A stretch of 64,000 nt of DNA from positions 146,562 through 210,561 of the forward strand of contig CAWIDI010000004.1 in assembly GCA_963834915.1 (NCBI GenBank), in the 5' to 3' direction. A program made the position numbers and the translations under genes. The notes beneath the pieces are model-generated. The model was not told the DNA's origin and did not search any database. It saw nothing but the letters and a program-made list of their open reading frames with translations. This document shows positions 1,692-12,980 of this stretch, one piece after another. Source of the stretch: an uncultured Chloroflexia bacterium. GTDB lineage: Bacteria > Chloroflexota > Limnocylindria > Limnocylindrales > CSP1-4. The stretch's first letter is position 1, and each line of letters begins with the position of its first letter.

Positions 1692-2330
1692 ATGACCATC
1701 TCCAACGACTCCCGCGACCGCGTCAAGAAGACCTTCGAGCCGATCGCGCTCGCGATGGGCCGCGCCGGCCTGACGCCGAACGCCCTGACCCTGATCGGGT
1801 TCGGGATCACGACCGTCGGCGCCGTCCTGGTCGGCCTCCAGCTCTGGATCGTCGGCGGTCTCGTCGTCTTCGTGGGCGGGGTCTTCGACATGTTCGATGG
1901 CACGCTCGCCCGGGCGACCGGCAAGGCGAGCCGGCTGGGCGCCTTCATGGACTCCACCTTCGACAAGGCCGGCGAGATCATCGTCTTCCTCGGCGTCATC
2001 GCCGGGCTCGAGGCCGCGGGCGCCACGGACGTGCCGATCCTCGTGGCCGCCTCCGCGATGGGCGCCTCGGTCATGGTCAGCTACGCCCGCGCCAAGTCCG
2101 ACGCCCTCGGCTACTCGGCCGGGATGGGGCTGGCCTCGGTGGGGATCATGCCGCGCGAGGTCCGCCTCGTCATCATCTCGCTCGGGATCGTCCTCTCGGG
2201 GACGAGCATCGGCACCACGGCCATCCAGTTCGCCCTCGGGGTCGTCCTCGTCGGCGCCGTCATCACCATCGTCCAGCGGATCCTGTACGTCCGCGGCCAG
2301 GATCAGCAGCAAACCACCGGGACCAAGTAG
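1692..2330 (+). CDS. pgsA1: CDP-alcohol phosphatidyltransferase, likely phosphatidylinositol-phosphate synthase
   Basis: Carries the motif [30 protein letters not shown], i.e. D(x2)DG(x2)AR...G(x3)D(x3)D. It is a multi-TM protein. The PI specificity is inferred from the adjacent ino1, acyltransferase and pimA-like genes. Confidence 0.75.
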
Positions 2331-2347
2331 GAGCAACGGAGAACGAC

Positions 2348-3589
2348 GTGAGCAAGAACGGCAGCAACGGCAAGAACGGCTCGACGCCGACCAACACCTG
2401 GGCAGGCGCCGGTCGCCGCGGCGACGGCAAGATCCGCGTAGCGATCGTCGGCGTCGGCAACTGCGCGAGCAGCCTCGTCCAGGGGCGCTACTACTACGAG
2501 GACGCCAAGGAGGACGACTTCGTCCCCGGGCTGATGCACGTCAACCTGGGCGGCTACCACGTCCGCGACATCGACTTCGTGGCGGCCTTCGACATCGACA
2601 AGAACAAGGTCGGCAAGGACCTGTCCGAGGCGATCTACACGAAGCCGAACAACACCTTCGTCTTCCAGCAGGTCGCCGCGACCGGCGTGACCGTCGAGCG
2701 CGGCATGGTCCACGACGGCCTCGGCAAGTACCTCAGCCAGATCATCGAGAAGGCGCCCGGGGAGACCGCCGACATCGTCGGCATCCTCAAGGAGCGCGAG
2801 GTCGACGTGATGGTCTCCTACCTGCCGGTCGGCAGCGAGGAAGCCACCAAGTGGTACGCGGAGCAGGCCCTCGCCGCCGGCGTCGGCTTCGTGAACGCGA
2901 TCCCGGTCTTCATCGGCCGCGAGCCGTACTGGCAGCGCCGCTTCGCCGACGCCGGCCTGCCGCTCATCGGCGACGACATCAAGAGCCAGGTCGGCGCGAC
3001 CATCAGCCACCGCGTGCTCACCCGCCTGTTCATGGACCGCGGCGTCCGCCTGGACCGCACCTACCAGCTGAACTTCGGCGGCAACACGGACTTCCTGAAC
3101 ATGCTCGAGCGCGAGCGCCTCGAGTCCAAGAAGATCTCGAAGACCAACGCGGTCACCTCGATGCTCGACTACGAGCTCGACGACGAGGACATCCACGTCG
3201 GCCCGAGCGACCACGTGCCGTGGCTCAAGGACCGCAAGTGGTGCTACATCCGGATGGAGGGCACCACCTTCGGCGACGTGCCGCTCAACGCCGAGCTCAA
3301 GCTCGAGGTCTGGGACAGCCCCAACAGCGCCGGCGTCATCACCGACGCGATCCGCTGCCTGAAGCTGGGCCTCGACCGCGGGCTCAAGGGCACGCTCGTG
3401 GCCCCGTCGAGCTACTTCATGAAGAGCCCGCCGCAGCAGATCCACGACGACATCGCGTTCAACCGGGTCGAGGCGTTCATCCGCGGCGAGGACGACGAGA
3501 CCCTCGTCGGCACCGAGAAGCTGGTCAAGCGGACCTACCGCAAGCTCGCGGGGACGAAGGCCAAGGTCGCGACCGCCGCCGCGAAGTGA
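2348..3589 (+). CDS. ino1: myo-inositol-1-phosphate synthase
   Basis: The 413-aa ORF has an NAD-binding N-terminus ([21 protein letters not shown]) and is conserved along its length ([21 protein letters not shown]...). Confidence 0.9.
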
Positions 3590-4650
3590 CCGAAGGGGAG
3601 CGCGGACCCGCCGTCCCGAGTCCGCGCTCGCGCCGGCTCGAGGCACCGCATCGACGCGGGGGCAGCAGCCCCCGCGTCGTCGAGCGTCTAGCCCTCATCG
3701 GCTATCGCTCGACGGCGTGGATCCTGTCGGTGGTGTCGCCGCGCCTCGCGGCCGCACTCATCGGCCGCTTCTCGCAGCTCTCCTACCTGCTCTGGCCCAC
3801 CAAGCGACACTGGTCCAACCAGAACTACGGCCACGTCCTGGGGCTGCCGCCGGGCGACCCGCGGGTGCGCCGCCTTGCGCTGCGCGCCTACTACGAGTAC
3901 GGCCGCTACCTCGTCGAGCTCATGCGCCTGCCGTCGCGGCCGCCGGGCGAGGTCGCCGACCTGGTGCCGGACCTGGACGCCGAGACCATCCGCGACCAGT
4001 GGCACGGCGCGGACGGCGGCGGCCTGATCTTCGCGGTCGGCCACGTCGGGAACAACGAGGCGGTGGCCGCCGCGATCGCCCGGCACAGCCTGCCGATCAG
4101 CGTCGTCGCCGACGACTCCTCGTTCCCGGAGCTGTTCGACCTGCTCCGCCGGCAACGCGAGGCATGGGGAGTGAAGGTCGTCGCGTGGCGCAACCTGCGC
4201 GAGATCTTCGCGGTGCTGCGCCGTCGCGAGATGCTGGCTCTGCTCATCGACTGGGGCTACCGCGAGGACGGGATCCCGGTGACGCTGTTCGGTGCCTGGA
4301 CGACGCTCCCCGCCGGGCCGGCGACCCTCGCCGCGCGGACGAAGTCCCGGATCCTGCCGATCTCGATCCGCCGCCGCGCGGACGCGTGCTTCGACGTCTC
4401 GTGGCCGGCGCCCATCGACCTCGCCTCGGACGATCCGGCCGAGCTCCAGCGCGCGACGCAGGCCCTGGCCGACTGGCTCGCCGGGAACATCGCGGCCGCA
4501 CCGGAGCAGTGGTACAGCTTCAAGCCGATCTGGCCGGCGACCGCCTGGGAAGCGGCCGAGCTCGAGCGCCGCGCCGGCGAGATGCAGGCTGGCCGGCCCG
4601 ATCCTGGCCCCGGGCTGGCCCACGCGCCGCGCGAGGTCGCGAACCCGTGA
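3586..4650 (+). CDS. Lysophospholipid/lipid A-type acyltransferase (HtrB/PatA-like), copy 1
   Basis: This is the C-terminal part of track ORF 1897..4650 (...[19 protein letters not shown]...[40 protein letters not shown]...[10 protein letters not shown]). The proposed GTG start at 3586 overlaps the ino1 stop (GTGA). The start is uncertain. Confidence 0.7.
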
Positions 4651-5582
4651 GCTCGCTCGCGCGCCGGCTCCGCGGCCGGGCCCTCATCGCAGCATCGTGG
4701 CTGGCGTGCCACCTGCCCGAGGGTCCGCAGGTGCGGCTCGCCATCCTGGCCGGCGACGTCTGGTACCGGCTCGCTCCCGATCGCGCGGCCCAGGCGCGGC
4801 GCAACCTCCGGCGCGTCGCCACGTCGCTCGCGGAGCGCGGCCGCGGCAGTCCGGCCGTTCGCGCGGCGGCCACAGATCCGCGAGCGCTGGAGCGCCTCGT
4901 CAAGTCGGCCTTCCGGCACAGCGCGCGGTACTACCTCGAGGTGGCGCGGACGCCGGCGCTGCGGCCGGGCGACCTGGAGGGCCGGCTCCTCGTCGAGACG
5001 CCCGAGGTCATCGAGGCGGCCTTCGGCTCGAAGCAGGCCGTGATCTTCGTCGGGCTCCATTTCGGGGCGATCGAGCTGCCGGCACTCTTCCTGGCGGCAC
5101 GAGTCGGCGGGGCGGTCGCACCGATGGAGACCATCGACGACGCCGCGCTCCAGGCCTGGTTCGTGCGGACGCGCGGCGCGGCGGGGATCCGCATCGTCGG
5201 GCTGCGCGAGGCCCGCCGCGAGCTGCTCGCCGCGCTGCGTGCCGGCACCCCGGTCGGCCTCGTCGGGGACCGCGACCTGACCGGCGGCGGGATGCCCGTC
5301 GAGCTCTTCGGGGCGTCGGCGCAGCTGCCGCTCGGCCCGGCGATGCTCGCGGTCGAGAGCGGGGCGCCGCCGTACGTCGTCGGCGTCCGGCGGGCGGGGG
5401 TCGGGCGCTATCGTGGACGCCTCGCAGCGGTGCACGTGCCAGGGACGGGGACGCGCCGGGAACGGGTCGAAGGGACGATGAAGGGGCTGGCAGCCGAGTT
5501 CGAACGGGTCATCGAGGACGCGCCCGACCAGTGGTGGGCGGTCTTCTTCCCGATCTGGCCGGACCTCGAGGCCGTGGCATGA
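4647..5582 (+). CDS. Lysophospholipid/lipid A-type acyltransferase (HtrB/PatA-like), copy 2
   Basis: This is the C-terminal part of track ORF 3717..5582 ([10 protein letters not shown]...VIFVGLHFGAIELPALF...GLVGDRDLTGGGMPVELFGASAQLPLGPAMLAVESGAPPYVV...DQWWAVFFPIWPD). GTG 4647 overlaps the upstream stop (GTGA). Confidence 0.75.
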   Translation: MSSLARRLRGRALIAASWLACHLPEGPQVRLAILAGDVWYRLAPDRAAQARRNLRRVATSLAERGRGSPAVRAAATDPRALERLVKSAFRHSARYYLEVARTPALRPGDLEGRLLVETPEVIEAAFGSKQAVIFVGLHFGAIELPALFLAARVGGAVAPMETIDDAALQAWFVRTRGAAGIRIVGLREARRELLAALRAGTPVGLVGDRDLTGGGMPVELFGASAQLPLGPAMLAVESGAPPYVVGVRRAGVGRYRGRLAAVHVPGTGTRRERVEGTMKGLAAEFERVIEDAPDQWWAVFFPIWPDLEAVA

Positions 5583-6397
5583 CCGAGCCGTCCGCCGAGC
5601 CCGTCCGGCCGGGTCGCGCCGACCTCCACATCCACACGGTCGCCTCCGACGGGACCGCGTCCGTGACCCAGATCCTCGACCACGTCGCGGCCAGCGGCAT
5701 GCTCGATGTCATCGCGATCGCCGACCACGAGCGGATCGACGCGGCGCTCGCGGCGCGGGCCATGGCGCGAGACCGCGGCCTGGCGCTGGAGGTCATCGTG
5801 GGCGAGGAGGTGACGACCCTCGGCGGCCACCTCCTGGCGCTCTACCTGGAGGAGCCGGTCCGCTCCTATCGCTCGCTGCGCACGACCATCGCGGCCGTCC
5901 ACGACGCCGGCGGCCTCGCCATCCCGGCCCACCCGCTCGTCCCGTACCCGCTCTGCGCGCAGGGACGGACGCTCCGCCGGCTCCTCGACGACCCCGACCC
6001 GCGCGTCCACCCGGACGCCCTCGAGACCTTCAACCCCACCGCCCTCGGGCGACCCCTCCACGACCGCGTCGTCCGGTTCGCCGACGAGCACGGCCTCGCC
6101 CACATCGGCAACAGCGACGCCCACGCCCTGGACGCGATCGGGGTGGGCTGGACGTCGTTCGAGGGACGGACCGCCGCCGACCTGCGGGCGTCGATCGCGT
6201 CGGGCACGACCGAGCATCACGGCACGTTCCACGACACGACGGGTCAGCTCGGGACCTTCGGCGAGCAGCTGCGCAAGCGCCGCCGCGACGCCCGCGACGA
6301 GCTCGTCGGCCGCCTCCGCCGCGACGGGACCGGCCGCGACCACGGCTACCCCGGCGGCCGCGCCCGCCCGCCGCGCTTCGACGAGGGCGCCCGGTGA
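5579..6397 (+). CDS. PHP-domain metal-dependent phosphoesterase
   Basis: N-terminus is MTEPSAEPVRPGRADLHIHTVASDG, with later ...AIADHE..., ...IPAHP... and ...NSDAH..., a typical PHP His/Asp pattern. The ATG overlaps the upstream stop (ATGA), and its own stop overlaps the pimA-like GTG (GTGA). Confidence 0.8.
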   Translation: MTEPSAEPVRPGRADLHIHTVASDGTASVTQILDHVAASGMLDVIAIADHERIDAALAARAMARDRGLALEVIVGEEVTTLGGHLLALYLEEPVRSYRSLRTTIAAVHDAGGLAIPAHPLVPYPLCAQGRTLRRLLDDPDPRVHPDALETFNPTALGRPLHDRVVRFADEHGLAHIGNSDAHALDAIGVGWTSFEGRTAADLRASIASGTTEHHGTFHDTTGQLGTFGEQLRKRRRDARDELVGRLRRDGTGRDHGYPGGRARPPRFDEGAR

Positions 6398-7635
6398 AGA
6401 TCGGCCTCGTCTGCCCGTACATCTACCCGGAGGCCGGGGGCGTCGCCCAGCATGTCCGCTTCCTGTACGAGAACCTCCGCCAGGCGGGCCACGATGTCCG
6501 GATCATCACCGCCAGCCACGGCCCGCAGCGGTCGTCAGAGGGCGACATCCTGCGCATCGGCGTGGGCTTCTCGATGCCCACCAACGGGTCGGTCGGGACG
6601 CTCACGTTCTCGCCGCGCTATCTCAGCCAGGTCCGCGCGTTGCTGGCTCGCGAGCGATTCGACGTGCTCCACTTCCACGAGCCCTTCGTCCCGTTCCTGT
6701 CGCTGTTCCTCCTCCGCGAATCGACCAGCGTCAACATCGCGACGTTCCACGCCTACGCGGGCTTCTCGCCGTCGTACGAATTGGGGAGCCGGCTGATGCG
6801 CCGCCACGCGGCGCGGCTCCACGGGCGCATCGCGGTCAGCGCGGCCGCCCGCCACTTCATCGACCGGTTCTTCCCCGGCGACTACAAGGTCATCCCCAAC
6901 GGCGTCGACATCGCCCGCTTCGCCAACGCCGTCCCGATCTCGCGCTGGCAGGACGACGCGCCGAACCTGCTGTTCGTCGGTCGCCACGAGCCGCGGAAGG
7001 GCCTGCTGGACCTGCTGAAGGCGCAGCGCATGCTGCGCAAGACCGGCCACGGGACGCGATTGCTGATCGTGGGCTCGGGTCCCCAAGAGCGCGAGGCGCG
7101 CCGCTACGTGGCCACACGTGGCCTCCAGGGGGTCGAGTTCCTGGGTCGCGTCAGTGACGCCGAGAAGGCCCAGCTCTACCGGACCGCGCGGGTGTTCGTC
7201 TCGCCCGCCACCGGCGGCGAGTCGTTCGGGATCGTGCTGCTCGAGGCGATGGCCGCCGGGACGCCCATCGTCTGCTCGGACATCCATGGCTACAAGGGCG
7301 TGGTCCGGCGCGACCGCGAGGGCCTGCTGGTCCCGCCGCATCAGCCGAAGGAGCTCGCGACCGCGATCGCGCGGGTGCTCGAGGAGCCGGGGCTGGCCGA
7401 GCGCATGGGCGCCGCCGGGCGGGAACGCGCCGAGGACTTCAGCTGGCCGCGCGTGACCCTCAAGGTCGAGGAGTACTACGGATTCGTCATCCGCCGGCTC
7501 GCGGCGGCGGGCCAGCTCCCGGCCGGGTTCAACGCCCCGATCCCTCAGGCGCCGCCGGTCCGCGCCAGGCTGTCCGTGTCGTCAGGGGCCGGCTCGCCGG
7601 ACGCCAGCGACAGCCTCCAGACCGAGGTCGAGTAG
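6394..7635 (+). CDS. pimA: GT4 glycosyltransferase, PimA-like phosphatidylinositol mannosyltransferase
   Basis: N-terminus is MKIGLVCPYIYPEAGGVAQHV, with the GT-B C-terminal motif ...ATGGESFGIVLLEAMAAGTPIV. The operon context is the same as the mycobacterial pgsA1-patA-pimA cluster. The last 91 nt overlap the convergent giant gene. Confidence 0.8.
   Translation: MKIGLVCPYIYPEAGGVAQHVRFLYENLRQAGHDVRIITASHGPQRSSEGDILRIGVGFSMPTNGSVGTLTFSPRYLSQVRALLARERFDVLHFHEPFVPFLSLFLLRESTSVNIATFHAYAGFSPSYELGSRLMRRHAARLHGRIAVSAAARHFIDRFFPGDYKVIPNGVDIARFANAVPISRWQDDAPNLLFVGRHEPRKGLLDLLKAQRMLRKTGHGTRLLIVGSGPQEREARRYVATRGLQGVEFLGRVSDAEKAQLYRTARVFVSPATGGESFGIVLLEAMAAGTPIVCSDIHGYKGVVRRDREGLLVPPHQPKELATAIARVLEEPGLAERMGAAGRERAEDFSWPRVTLKVEEYYGFVIRRLAAAGQLPAGFNAPIPQAPPVRARLSVSSGAGSPDASDSLQTEVE

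Positions 7636-12980: not shown

Follow-up and report, generated by a model that had tools for sequence, protein, structure and literature searches.

A propeller-bearing fusion of two GT-C glycosyltransferase modules in Limnocylindria

How many steps of a cell-surface glycosylation pathway can a single polypeptide carry? The question is raised by a 64,000-nucleotide stretch of contig CAWIDI010000004.1 from an uncultured bacterium of the class Limnocylindria (Chloroflexota; assembly GCA_963834915.1), hereafter the window, whose minus strand holds at 7545..12980 one unbroken open reading frame (ORF) of 1811 codons counted from its first GTG. A first-pass annotation had read this ORF as two different GT-C glycosyltransferase modules joined in one protein, the second resembling the protein O-mannosyltransferases (PMTs) and interrupted by a repeat domain. 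Here we report the architecture of the protein, the folds of its parts, and the conservation of its catalytic-type residues, of the fusion and of the surrounding synteny, and we weigh what such an enzyme may do.

Taken one at a time, the parts are of known kinds: a PMT/GT39-type core, a GT-C module from the neighbourhood of ALG6, PimE and PIG-M, and a WD40-like β-propeller. What is new is the way they are put together. Two different GT-C catalytic modules share one chain; the propeller is spliced into outer loop 1 of the PMT module, bacterial PMTs having been described as lacking soluble domains; and the PMT module contains extra transmembrane (TM) segments. Literature searches returned no description of this architecture, nor of phosphatidylinositol mannosides (PIMs) or O-mannosylation in Chloroflexota. 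The earlier impression that the architecture had gone undescribed holds for the literature searched, although databases contain the protein many times over under generic labels, the whole chain being called "phospholipid carrier-dependent glycosyltransferase" or mannosyltransferase/hypothetical.

One reading frame, two GT-C modules and a propeller

The reading frame is coherent over its full length. In a window of 66-75% G+C, third-position GC stays at 0.91-0.99 in each 200-codon block along the entire ORF, and this uniformity indicates one coding frame throughout. All motifs quoted in the first-pass annotation were found where expected, and homologues are colinear with the ORF, including those on megabase long-read contigs. 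That annotation had also warned of indel errors elsewhere in the window; at least one probable indel lies about 2 kb away, in a GT2 gene, and none was found inside the ORF. The alignment of homologue N-termini begins at codon 17, a GTG (12932) that GGAG precedes by nine bases, so that the true start is probably this codon and the product 1795 residues long. Residue numbers below count from the first GTG, and all features of the protein lie on the minus strand.

The C-terminal module is supported as PMT-like by profiles, motifs and a structural model. Residues 606-686 (10923..11165), which carry FDEVYH and HPHLAK, are conserved more strongly than any other part of the protein (76% identity). 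They presumably correspond to FDEVHF...HPPLAK of yeast Pmt1, and we therefore read them as TM1, the DE motif and the second loop-1 helix of a canonical PMT. The acidic loop motif that had been noted behind a TM helix (MHFDEVYHARTATEF, residues 636-650) contains D639-E640 (11061..11066), the PMT 'DE' catalytic motif, which is invariant in alignments of 31 and of 70 sequences and opens the first loop-1 helix of the model. The PMT core from TM2 to about TM7 follows at residues 1096-1250 (9231..9695), its first TM segment including AWRLPGVIAGALTAVFLYLL (1101-1120). Here Pfam PMT (PF02366) matches above threshold, with 43.3 bits against a cutoff of 22.7 over residues 1098-1215 and profile positions 81-197 of 245; the match begins only at profile position 81, since some 470 residues set TM1 and the first outer loop apart from it.

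The C-terminal part of outer loop 4 and the PMT_4TMC region occupy residues 1401-1600 (8181..8780). The four-TM-type C-terminus proposed earlier is borne out, Pfam PMT_4TMC (PF16192) scoring 58.3 bits against a cutoff of 32.4 over residues 1423-1582. Within this region PWWAWPLDLKPVWFYQ (1447-1462) opens with PWWAWP (1447-1452; 8625-8642), which is invariant and is followed by a predicted β-hairpin at model residues 859-876. In the Mycobacterium tuberculosis enzyme (MtPMT) a W-rich outer-loop-4 motif, PWTWP, together with a hairpin binds the acceptor peptide (PMC12331936); the L-x3-P spacing downstream of the motif differs from MtPMT.

Beyond the core, the composition of the module departs from that of a plain PMT. 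Ahead of outer loop 4, residues 1251-1400 (8781..9230) form some four additional TM helices and a Pro-rich loop, at the position of the MIR domain in eukaryotic PMTs; after the 4TMC region, residues 1601-1811 (7548..8180) add roughly five TM helices in an extension specific to the family. The extension has no Pfam match and contains the conserved sequences YPNIAALPLP and YQGILPTYLYAFQFPVS. Some 18-20 TM-like helices are predicted in this module in place of the 11-TM topology, with the additional ones in the stretches 1251-1400 and 1601-1795 of the chain. An AlphaFold model of residues 600-1799, built on 70 sequences, has a predicted local distance difference test score (pLDDT) of 87.8 and a predicted template-modelling score (pTM) of 0.88. 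Pmt4 is matched both by this model (Foldseek against PDB, E 2.1e-7) and by the family profile.

Some 470 residues separate the end of TM1 of the PMT module, near residue 627, from the beginning of the next TM helix, near 1097. The first-pass annotation had counted about 430 soluble residues before the second TM helix. A large insert is indeed present, but it amounts to about 410 of the 470 residues and does not replace the loop, since both canonical loop-1 helices (about 55 residues) are kept. The insert is a seven-bladed WD40-like β-propeller at residues 687-1095 (9696..10922), placed between the second loop-1 helix and TM2, with a helical sub-insert of 49 residues at 858-906 (10263..10409). 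The strand-like repeats that had suggested a propeller (LVLGYGDGRLATLEL, 759-773; LHASDDGATLAVGEGDHLDILDL, 800-822; LYVTSGDAASPNYHVLAI, 963-980) belong to it, and the suggestion is supported by the AlphaFold model, in which about 28-30 β-strands match the seven-bladed WD40 propellers of G-beta, TLE1, ATG16L1 and a Thermomonospora WD40 protein (Foldseek against PDB, E ~1e-8 to 1e-7; target-normalised TM-scores 0.64-0.78). At the sequence level the likeness is faint. A family profile over the insert weakly matches the WD40 proteins Utp17, Utp4 and Erb1 (E ~4e-4), and Pfam gives only non-significant propeller matches for WD40 repeats (E 0.12-0.23). The propeller is 48% identical across the family. 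Loop 1 as a whole is acidic (59 Asp/Glu, 22 Lys/Arg), as would fit a position outside the cytoplasm.

The N-terminal module covers residues 35-481 (11538..12878) and has about 11-13 TM helices. It had been recognised as a GT-C of a family other than PMT, and sub-threshold profile matches, fold comparison and its dissimilarity to the PMT module agree with this assignment. By sequence, Pfam GT87 (PF09594) reaches 23.1 bits against a cutoff of 25 (E 7e-5, residues 132-376), a match that is also precomputed for a few homologues, and Alg6_Alg8 (PF03155) reaches 18.8 bits against a cutoff of 25, over residues 338-414 only. When 15 stand-alone members of the family were scanned singly, nine matched Alg6_Alg8 (E<=0.1; best E 1.8e-7), five GT87 and three PIG-U. 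An AlphaFold model of the module (pLDDT 81.9, pTM 0.83) finds its best fold matches in glycosylphosphatidylinositol (GPI) mannosyltransferase I and ALG6 (E 1.5e-6; target-normalised TM-score 0.68-0.69), with 9wno_A, GPI mannosyltransferase I, at the top (E 1.5e-6) and ALG6 6snh_X at E 1.5e-6 (TM-score 0.63 query-normalised, 0.68 target-normalised). PIG-U, ALG3 and PimE follow in that order, and then OST/STT3, ArnT and AftA. We conclude that the module is modelled as a GT-C fold protein from the ALG6/PIG-M/PimE neighbourhood that belongs, by sequence threshold, to none of these families.

Invariant positions of the N-module include D71, K126, D133, K211, Q213, R228, N290, N293, W295, D315, T379, H382, E383, R384, Y385 and N417. 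In outer loop 1 the first juxtamembrane helix carries D71 (12768..12770) at its tip, and no other acid early in that loop is invariant, D92-R-D94, just before the quoted DYTPGYMYVLW (98-108), not being conserved across the family. The position of D71 is analogous to that of the loop-1 Asp that serves as catalytic base in PimE (D58), ALG6 (D69) and Gpi14 (D39) (PMC12041525, PMC12653191), which makes D71 a candidate catalytic base. K211 and H382, judged by position in the topology, are comparable to K195 and H322 of PimE, which hold the phosphate there. H382-E383-R384 (11829..11837) sits in the invariant LPTRVHERY motif, within the Alg6_Alg8 profile alignment and in the quoted TRVHERYVYPFF (379-390).

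No significant sequence similarity was found between the N-module and the PMT module (best E 0.04 over 22 residues), so the protein is no tandem duplication of one GT-C, an origin that was considered and rejected. Neither module was found to recur at another place in the window.

Between the modules runs the Pro/Ala-rich linker recognised from the start, here residues 482-605 (11166..11537), which abounds in Ala, Pro, Arg and Gly, shows little conservation (26% identity) and is modelled with low confidence. With 19 Lys/Arg against 14 Asp/Glu it is net basic and, on that ground, likely cytoplasmic. Gpi14 and ALG6 have both ends of the protein inside. An N-module of this kind, a cytoplasmic linker and a PMT TM1 running from inside to outside would together place both catalytic loops outside, and charge bias and family topology accordingly point to an extracytoplasmic position for both.

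The fusion is widespread in one bacterial class. In a search of 5.8 billion proteins we found at least 120 homologues of 1749-1862 residues with 58-84% identity; most of those listed align over 97-100% of the query, and the few of lower BLASTP coverage have local alignments that are interrupted at the linker. Combined, the two protein searches list full-length homologues in excess of 240. In the species-representative genomes of GTDB at least 527 stretches encode a relative, and all the relatives belong to Limnocylindria. The best 80 of these come from Limnocylindria/Chloroflexota metagenome-assembled genomes, including long-read contigs above 1 Mb and a 4.15-Mb chromosome; in them the protein is full-length wherever the contig permits and colinear in 80/80. 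A second size class of about 1500-1650 residues (~1550), with a smaller insert, occurs in the same class and is always fused, so that the fusion is kept in both size classes (~1800 and ~1550 residues) and down to about 35-40% identity. The same domain order, which the earlier annotation had proposed to look for in other genomes, is therefore found in hundreds of them, within Limnocylindria.

The N-module also exists by itself. An exhaustive HMMER search of 1.84 billion cluster representatives gave 4067 relatives, fused and stand-alone (~450-510 residues), some of which are labelled "Gpi18-like mannosyltransferase" by JGI. One locus, L083, contains a genuine stand-alone N-module paralogue (8001-9494), followed after a 4-bp overlap by the fused N-module and PMT gene, and P0208 is a stand-alone N-module gene in an unrelated context. 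The cluster at L083 (2209-11722) is dense in GT-C enzymes and includes two weak GT87-like genes, a PIG-V-like gene (Mannosyl_trans2), a TMEM260-like gene and a GT2. In a look for lineages that keep the two modules apart, as Rosetta-stone evidence, two further candidates for stand-alone N-modules, P0155 and P0171, were rejected. Their loci (L081, 5820-10926; L082, 7217-12471) lie on metagenome contigs from indel-ridden assemblies in which the gene is called as several proteins; the frame switches repeatedly inside the gene, which marks them as error-ridden copies of the fused gene and not as a true split.

Genes around the fusion

Downstream of the fusion gene, at lower coordinates of the window, a plus-strand series from 1692 to 7635 looks like a complete set for early PIM synthesis in a member of the Chloroflexota; PIMs are regarded as an actinobacterial trait. 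It comprises a phosphatidylinositol-phosphate (PIP) synthase (1692-2330), a myo-inositol-1-phosphate synthase, Ino1 (2348-3589), a PatA-like acyltransferase (3717..5582), a PHP-domain gene (~5585-6397) and a homologue of PimA, a GT4 enzyme (6394..7635). The acyltransferase occupies residues ~315-614 of its product, after an N-terminal part of about 300 residues; the PIM acyltransferase PatA is its only relative in the PDB, and its best NCBIfam match is likewise a PIM acyltransferase. The possibility of a frameshift in 3717-6397 was rejected, as this interval holds two adjacent genes in different frames, the PatA-like gene to 5582 and the PHP gene beyond it. In L082 the PHP and GT4 parts are called as a single 595-residue protein. 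The PimA homologue matches mycobacterial PimA over its full length with E 1.7e-63, the next non-PimA chain scoring 1e-25, and adjoins the large gene in 72/80 related loci. In the window the two genes stand tail to tail, and their 3' ends overlap by 91 bp (7545-7635).

On the other, upstream side of the fusion, a divergent gene on the plus strand (12917..14527) encodes a TMEM260-like/PMT_2 GT-C glycosyltransferase. As mechanically delimited, this ORF overlaps the large one by 64 bases (12917-12980), or by 16 (12917-12932) if the large gene starts at 12932. In most relatives an extra ORF of about 490 residues lies between the two genes (for example L001, 6550-8019), and this window lacks it. A GT2 of the polyprenyl-phosphate-sugar synthase type, a candidate supplier of the donor, comes next on the plus strand (14524..15313), with a frameshift near 15125-15144. 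Against a 261-residue orthologue in L001, residues 12-205 are read in one frame and 199-261 in the next; the break is either an assembly indel error, which is probable, or the mark of a pseudogene. Because of it the mechanical ORF at 14524-15948 runs on antisense over a bifunctional-nuclease-domain (BFN) gene (15328-15888) and a rhomboid protease gene (15896-16378), both on the minus strand and both syntenic with the glycosyltransferase locus in most relatives.

Farther on, the minus strand encodes at 16636..18930 a single-pass membrane protein of 764 residues that is conserved, has one TM helix near residues 320-345 and lacks a Pfam match. Its extracytoplasmic C-terminus ends in ASPSASPSASPSASPKATPKATPK... 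/ ASPSASPSASPSASPKATPKATPKATAKPTKKP, and this Ser/Thr/Pro-rich tail recurs in homologues: of 58 whose last residues (up to 45) were examined, 28 have a combined Ser, Thr and Pro content above 45% there. Such a tail makes the protein a candidate O-glycosylation acceptor. Replication-origin-type genes, DciA (19051-19380), dnaN (20637-21755), dnaA (22199-23815) and yidC (24813-25994), lie about 10 kb from the large ORF. Across related loci, in some of which further GT87-like and PIG-V-like GT-Cs occur, the gene order is syntenic in 53-72/80, down to about 41-50% identity of the large protein.

What the fused enzyme may do

From these features we infer a donor sugar, acceptors, an order of action and a role for the propeller, in a reading to which we give a probability of roughly one half. 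The protein would be a bifunctional GT-C enzyme whose PMT module starts O-glycosylation, whose N-module extends the O-glycan and/or PI-mannosides, and whose propeller docks the acceptor or a partner. It would thereby probably bring together in one protein consecutive cell-surface sugar additions that other bacteria divide among separate enzymes. It would form one polytopic membrane protein of about 30 TM helices with two active GT-C modules connected by a basic, disordered cytoplasmic linker. Both modules would draw on a polyprenyl-phosphate-hexose, most likely polyprenyl-phosphate-mannose, at active sites facing outward from the cytoplasmic membrane. The PMT module would transfer a first hexose to Ser/Thr of exported or membrane proteins, with the DE motif of outer loop 1 and the W-rich motif of outer loop 4 forming the catalytic and peptide-binding site. 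The propeller would be a platform for acceptor docking or partner binding, a counterpart of MIR in eukaryotic PMTs or of the tetratricopeptide repeats (TPR) in TMTC/TMEM260. The N-module, with D71 as base, would then add the next hexose, either to the O-linked sugar or to PI-mannosides made by the products of the adjacent pimA, patA, ino1 and PIP synthase genes, or to both.

Fusions usually unite steps of one pathway, and precedents exist for the chemistry. In M. tuberculosis PimE both builds PIM5 and elongates O-mannose (PMC12331936), and in streptococci a GT-A and two separate GT-C enzymes glycosylate Ser/Thr-rich extracytoplasmic regions (PMC12041528).

Several results weigh against this bifunctional enzyme. 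For the PMT module, NCBIfam's actinobacterial Pmt equivalog (NF058602) reaches 53.3 bits against a cutoff of 800, so the module is a member of the PMT family and no orthologue of the characterised actinobacterial Pmt. The N-module stays under threshold for every Pfam and NCBIfam family, and searches of PDB chain sequences with a single sequence, the full-family profile and the stand-alone-family profile gave no match for it, which is why it is placed by fold comparison alone. Residues were equated with those of PimE, ALG6 and Gpi14 by positional analogy, and the models cover the N-module and residues 600-1799 separately. In the neighbourhood, pimA is convergent with the large gene and not co-transcribed with it; the GT2 gene is frameshifted in the window; and the best matches of the GT2, the candidate source of the donor sugar, scatter over ArnC, PpgS, PgfS and Dol-P-hexose types. 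Synteny was sampled in one class and may in part reflect shared ancestry, since all the sampled loci come from that class.

The strongest competitor keeps both modules active and removes the protein acceptor: both would build a PI-anchored glycolipid or lipoglycan of PIM- or lipomannan-like type, the PMT-like module having been repurposed and the propeller binding the growing glycan. The PimA homologue, PatA-like acyltransferase, Ino1 and PIP synthase nearby, in a conserved arrangement, fit this, as do the extra GT87-like and PIG-V-like GT-Cs of related loci and the N-module itself, whose top fold match, GPI mannosyltransferase I, acts on a PI-glycolipid and which also matches PimE. It nevertheless seems unlikely to us, because the PMT and PMT_4TMC profiles, both above threshold, are specific to protein O-mannosyltransferases, because the peptide-binding W-rich motif of MtPMT is invariant here, and because a neighbour with a Ser/Thr/Pro-rich tail fits a protein acceptor.

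A second alternative would make the N-module a non-catalytic scaffold of GT-C fold, like PIG-U in the GPI transamidase, that binds a polyprenyl or PI lipid or stabilises the PMT module, leaving the latter as the only enzyme. PIG-U structures are among its top fold matches (E 1.7e-4 to 3.8e-4), 3/15 family members have PIG-U Pfam matches, and the threshold of no catalytic family is reached. We regard this as quite improbable: PIG-U, which is non-catalytic, lacks the loop-1 acidic motif, whereas D71, K211 and HER are invariant in fused and stand-alone members alike, and the catalytic Gpi14 and ALG6 fit the module better. That the fusion arose artificially, through an assembly or indel error running two or three neighbouring genes together, as the probable indel in the nearby GT2 gene and the gene's being split in some database entries might suggest, is excluded by the more than 240 full-length homologues listed, the colinearity of the best 80 loci with their megabase long-read contigs, the uniform third-position GC and the repeated frame switches that betray the split copies.

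Returning to the bifunctional enzyme, a broader and tentative proposal, possible though doubtful at present, sets it at the core of an actinobacterial-style polyprenyl-phosphate-mannose envelope pathway in Limnocylindria. This pathway would run through PI, acyl-PI-mannosides, higher glycolipids and protein O-mannosylation, the two modules of the fusion working in tandem on one propeller-held acceptor, and it would be the first PIM-type pathway outside Actinomycetota. If so, the fusion would be a natural "initiation plus elongation" glycosylation machine.

Bacterial protein O-mannosyltransferases have barely been studied outside Actinobacteria, and the family described here is one of bacterial PMTs with a large soluble domain, in a loop other than that of MIR. 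How bacterial PMTs manage without a MIR domain is an open question (PMC12331936). The covalent fusion, kept in hundreds of genomes, is natural genetic evidence for coupled initiation and elongation. The neighbouring PimA, PatA, Ino1 and PIP-synthase genes suggest PI-mannoside chemistry in an abundant uncultured class of soil and freshwater, which bears on the envelope biology of Chloroflexota; interest in the locus grows if this context proves real outside Actinomycetota. A single chain with two GT-C sites is, moreover, an attractive object for cryo-electron microscopy and glyco-engineering.

Comparison with known glycosylation systems

The closest known counterparts of the C-terminal module are the bacterial Pmt enzymes of GT39, such as M. 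tuberculosis Rv1002c (MtPMT) and Streptomyces Pmt. Shared with them are the Pfam PMT and PMT_4TMC regions, the DE motif after TM1, the W-rich motif of outer loop 4 with its β-hairpin and, as far as can be inferred here, the donor logic of polyprenyl-phosphate-mannose. MtPMT is a stand-alone protein of about 520 residues with 11 TM helices and no large soluble domain (PMC12331936), whereas the PMT module of Limnocylindria has about 20 TM helices, a propeller of about 410 residues in outer loop 1 and a second GT-C fused to it. Eukaryotic PMT1, PMT2 and PMT4 likewise combine a PMT core with a β-rich, non-cytoplasmic soluble domain that is thought to handle the acceptor. Their MIR domain is a β-trefoil in outer loop 4, after TM7 (PMC12331936); the propeller, in contrast, is found in outer loop 1 before TM2, and the MIR position is filled by extra TM helices.

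The N-module shares with PimE (GT87), ALG6/ALG8 (GT57) and Gpi14/PIG-M (GT50) the GT-C fold and weak GT87 and Alg6_Alg8 profile matches. By positional analogy it may also share an acid at the tip of the first loop-1 helix and a conserved Lys and His for the phosphate, and its donor would likewise be a polyprenyl- or dolichyl-phosphate-hexose. Unlike these enzymes it falls under all family thresholds, has motifs of its own (DxxxFxxW, TVNAxNPWA and LPTRVHERY) and occurs both stand-alone, at about 450-510 residues, and fused; it also lacks the conserved outer-loop-1 DxD of Gpi14/PIG-M.

A GT-C O-mannosyltransferase joined to a repeat domain that selects acceptors is known from TMTC1-4 and TMEM260, a TMEM260-like gene being the divergent neighbour of the fusion. 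In those proteins, however, the repeat is a C-terminal TPR and not a loop-inserted propeller, and there is a single catalytic module. The streptococcal Pgf system (PgfS, a GT-A, with the GT-Cs PgfM1 and PgfM2) and GtrB/PgtC2 also pair a GT2 lipid-sugar synthase with GT-Cs (PMC12041528). Pgf moreover places two GT-Cs in one pathway, directed at extracytoplasmic Ser/Thr-rich regions of membrane and wall proteins (PMC12041528). It differs from the Limnocylindria fusion in that its GT-Cs are separate proteins of YfhO type, no propeller is present and the sugars are others.

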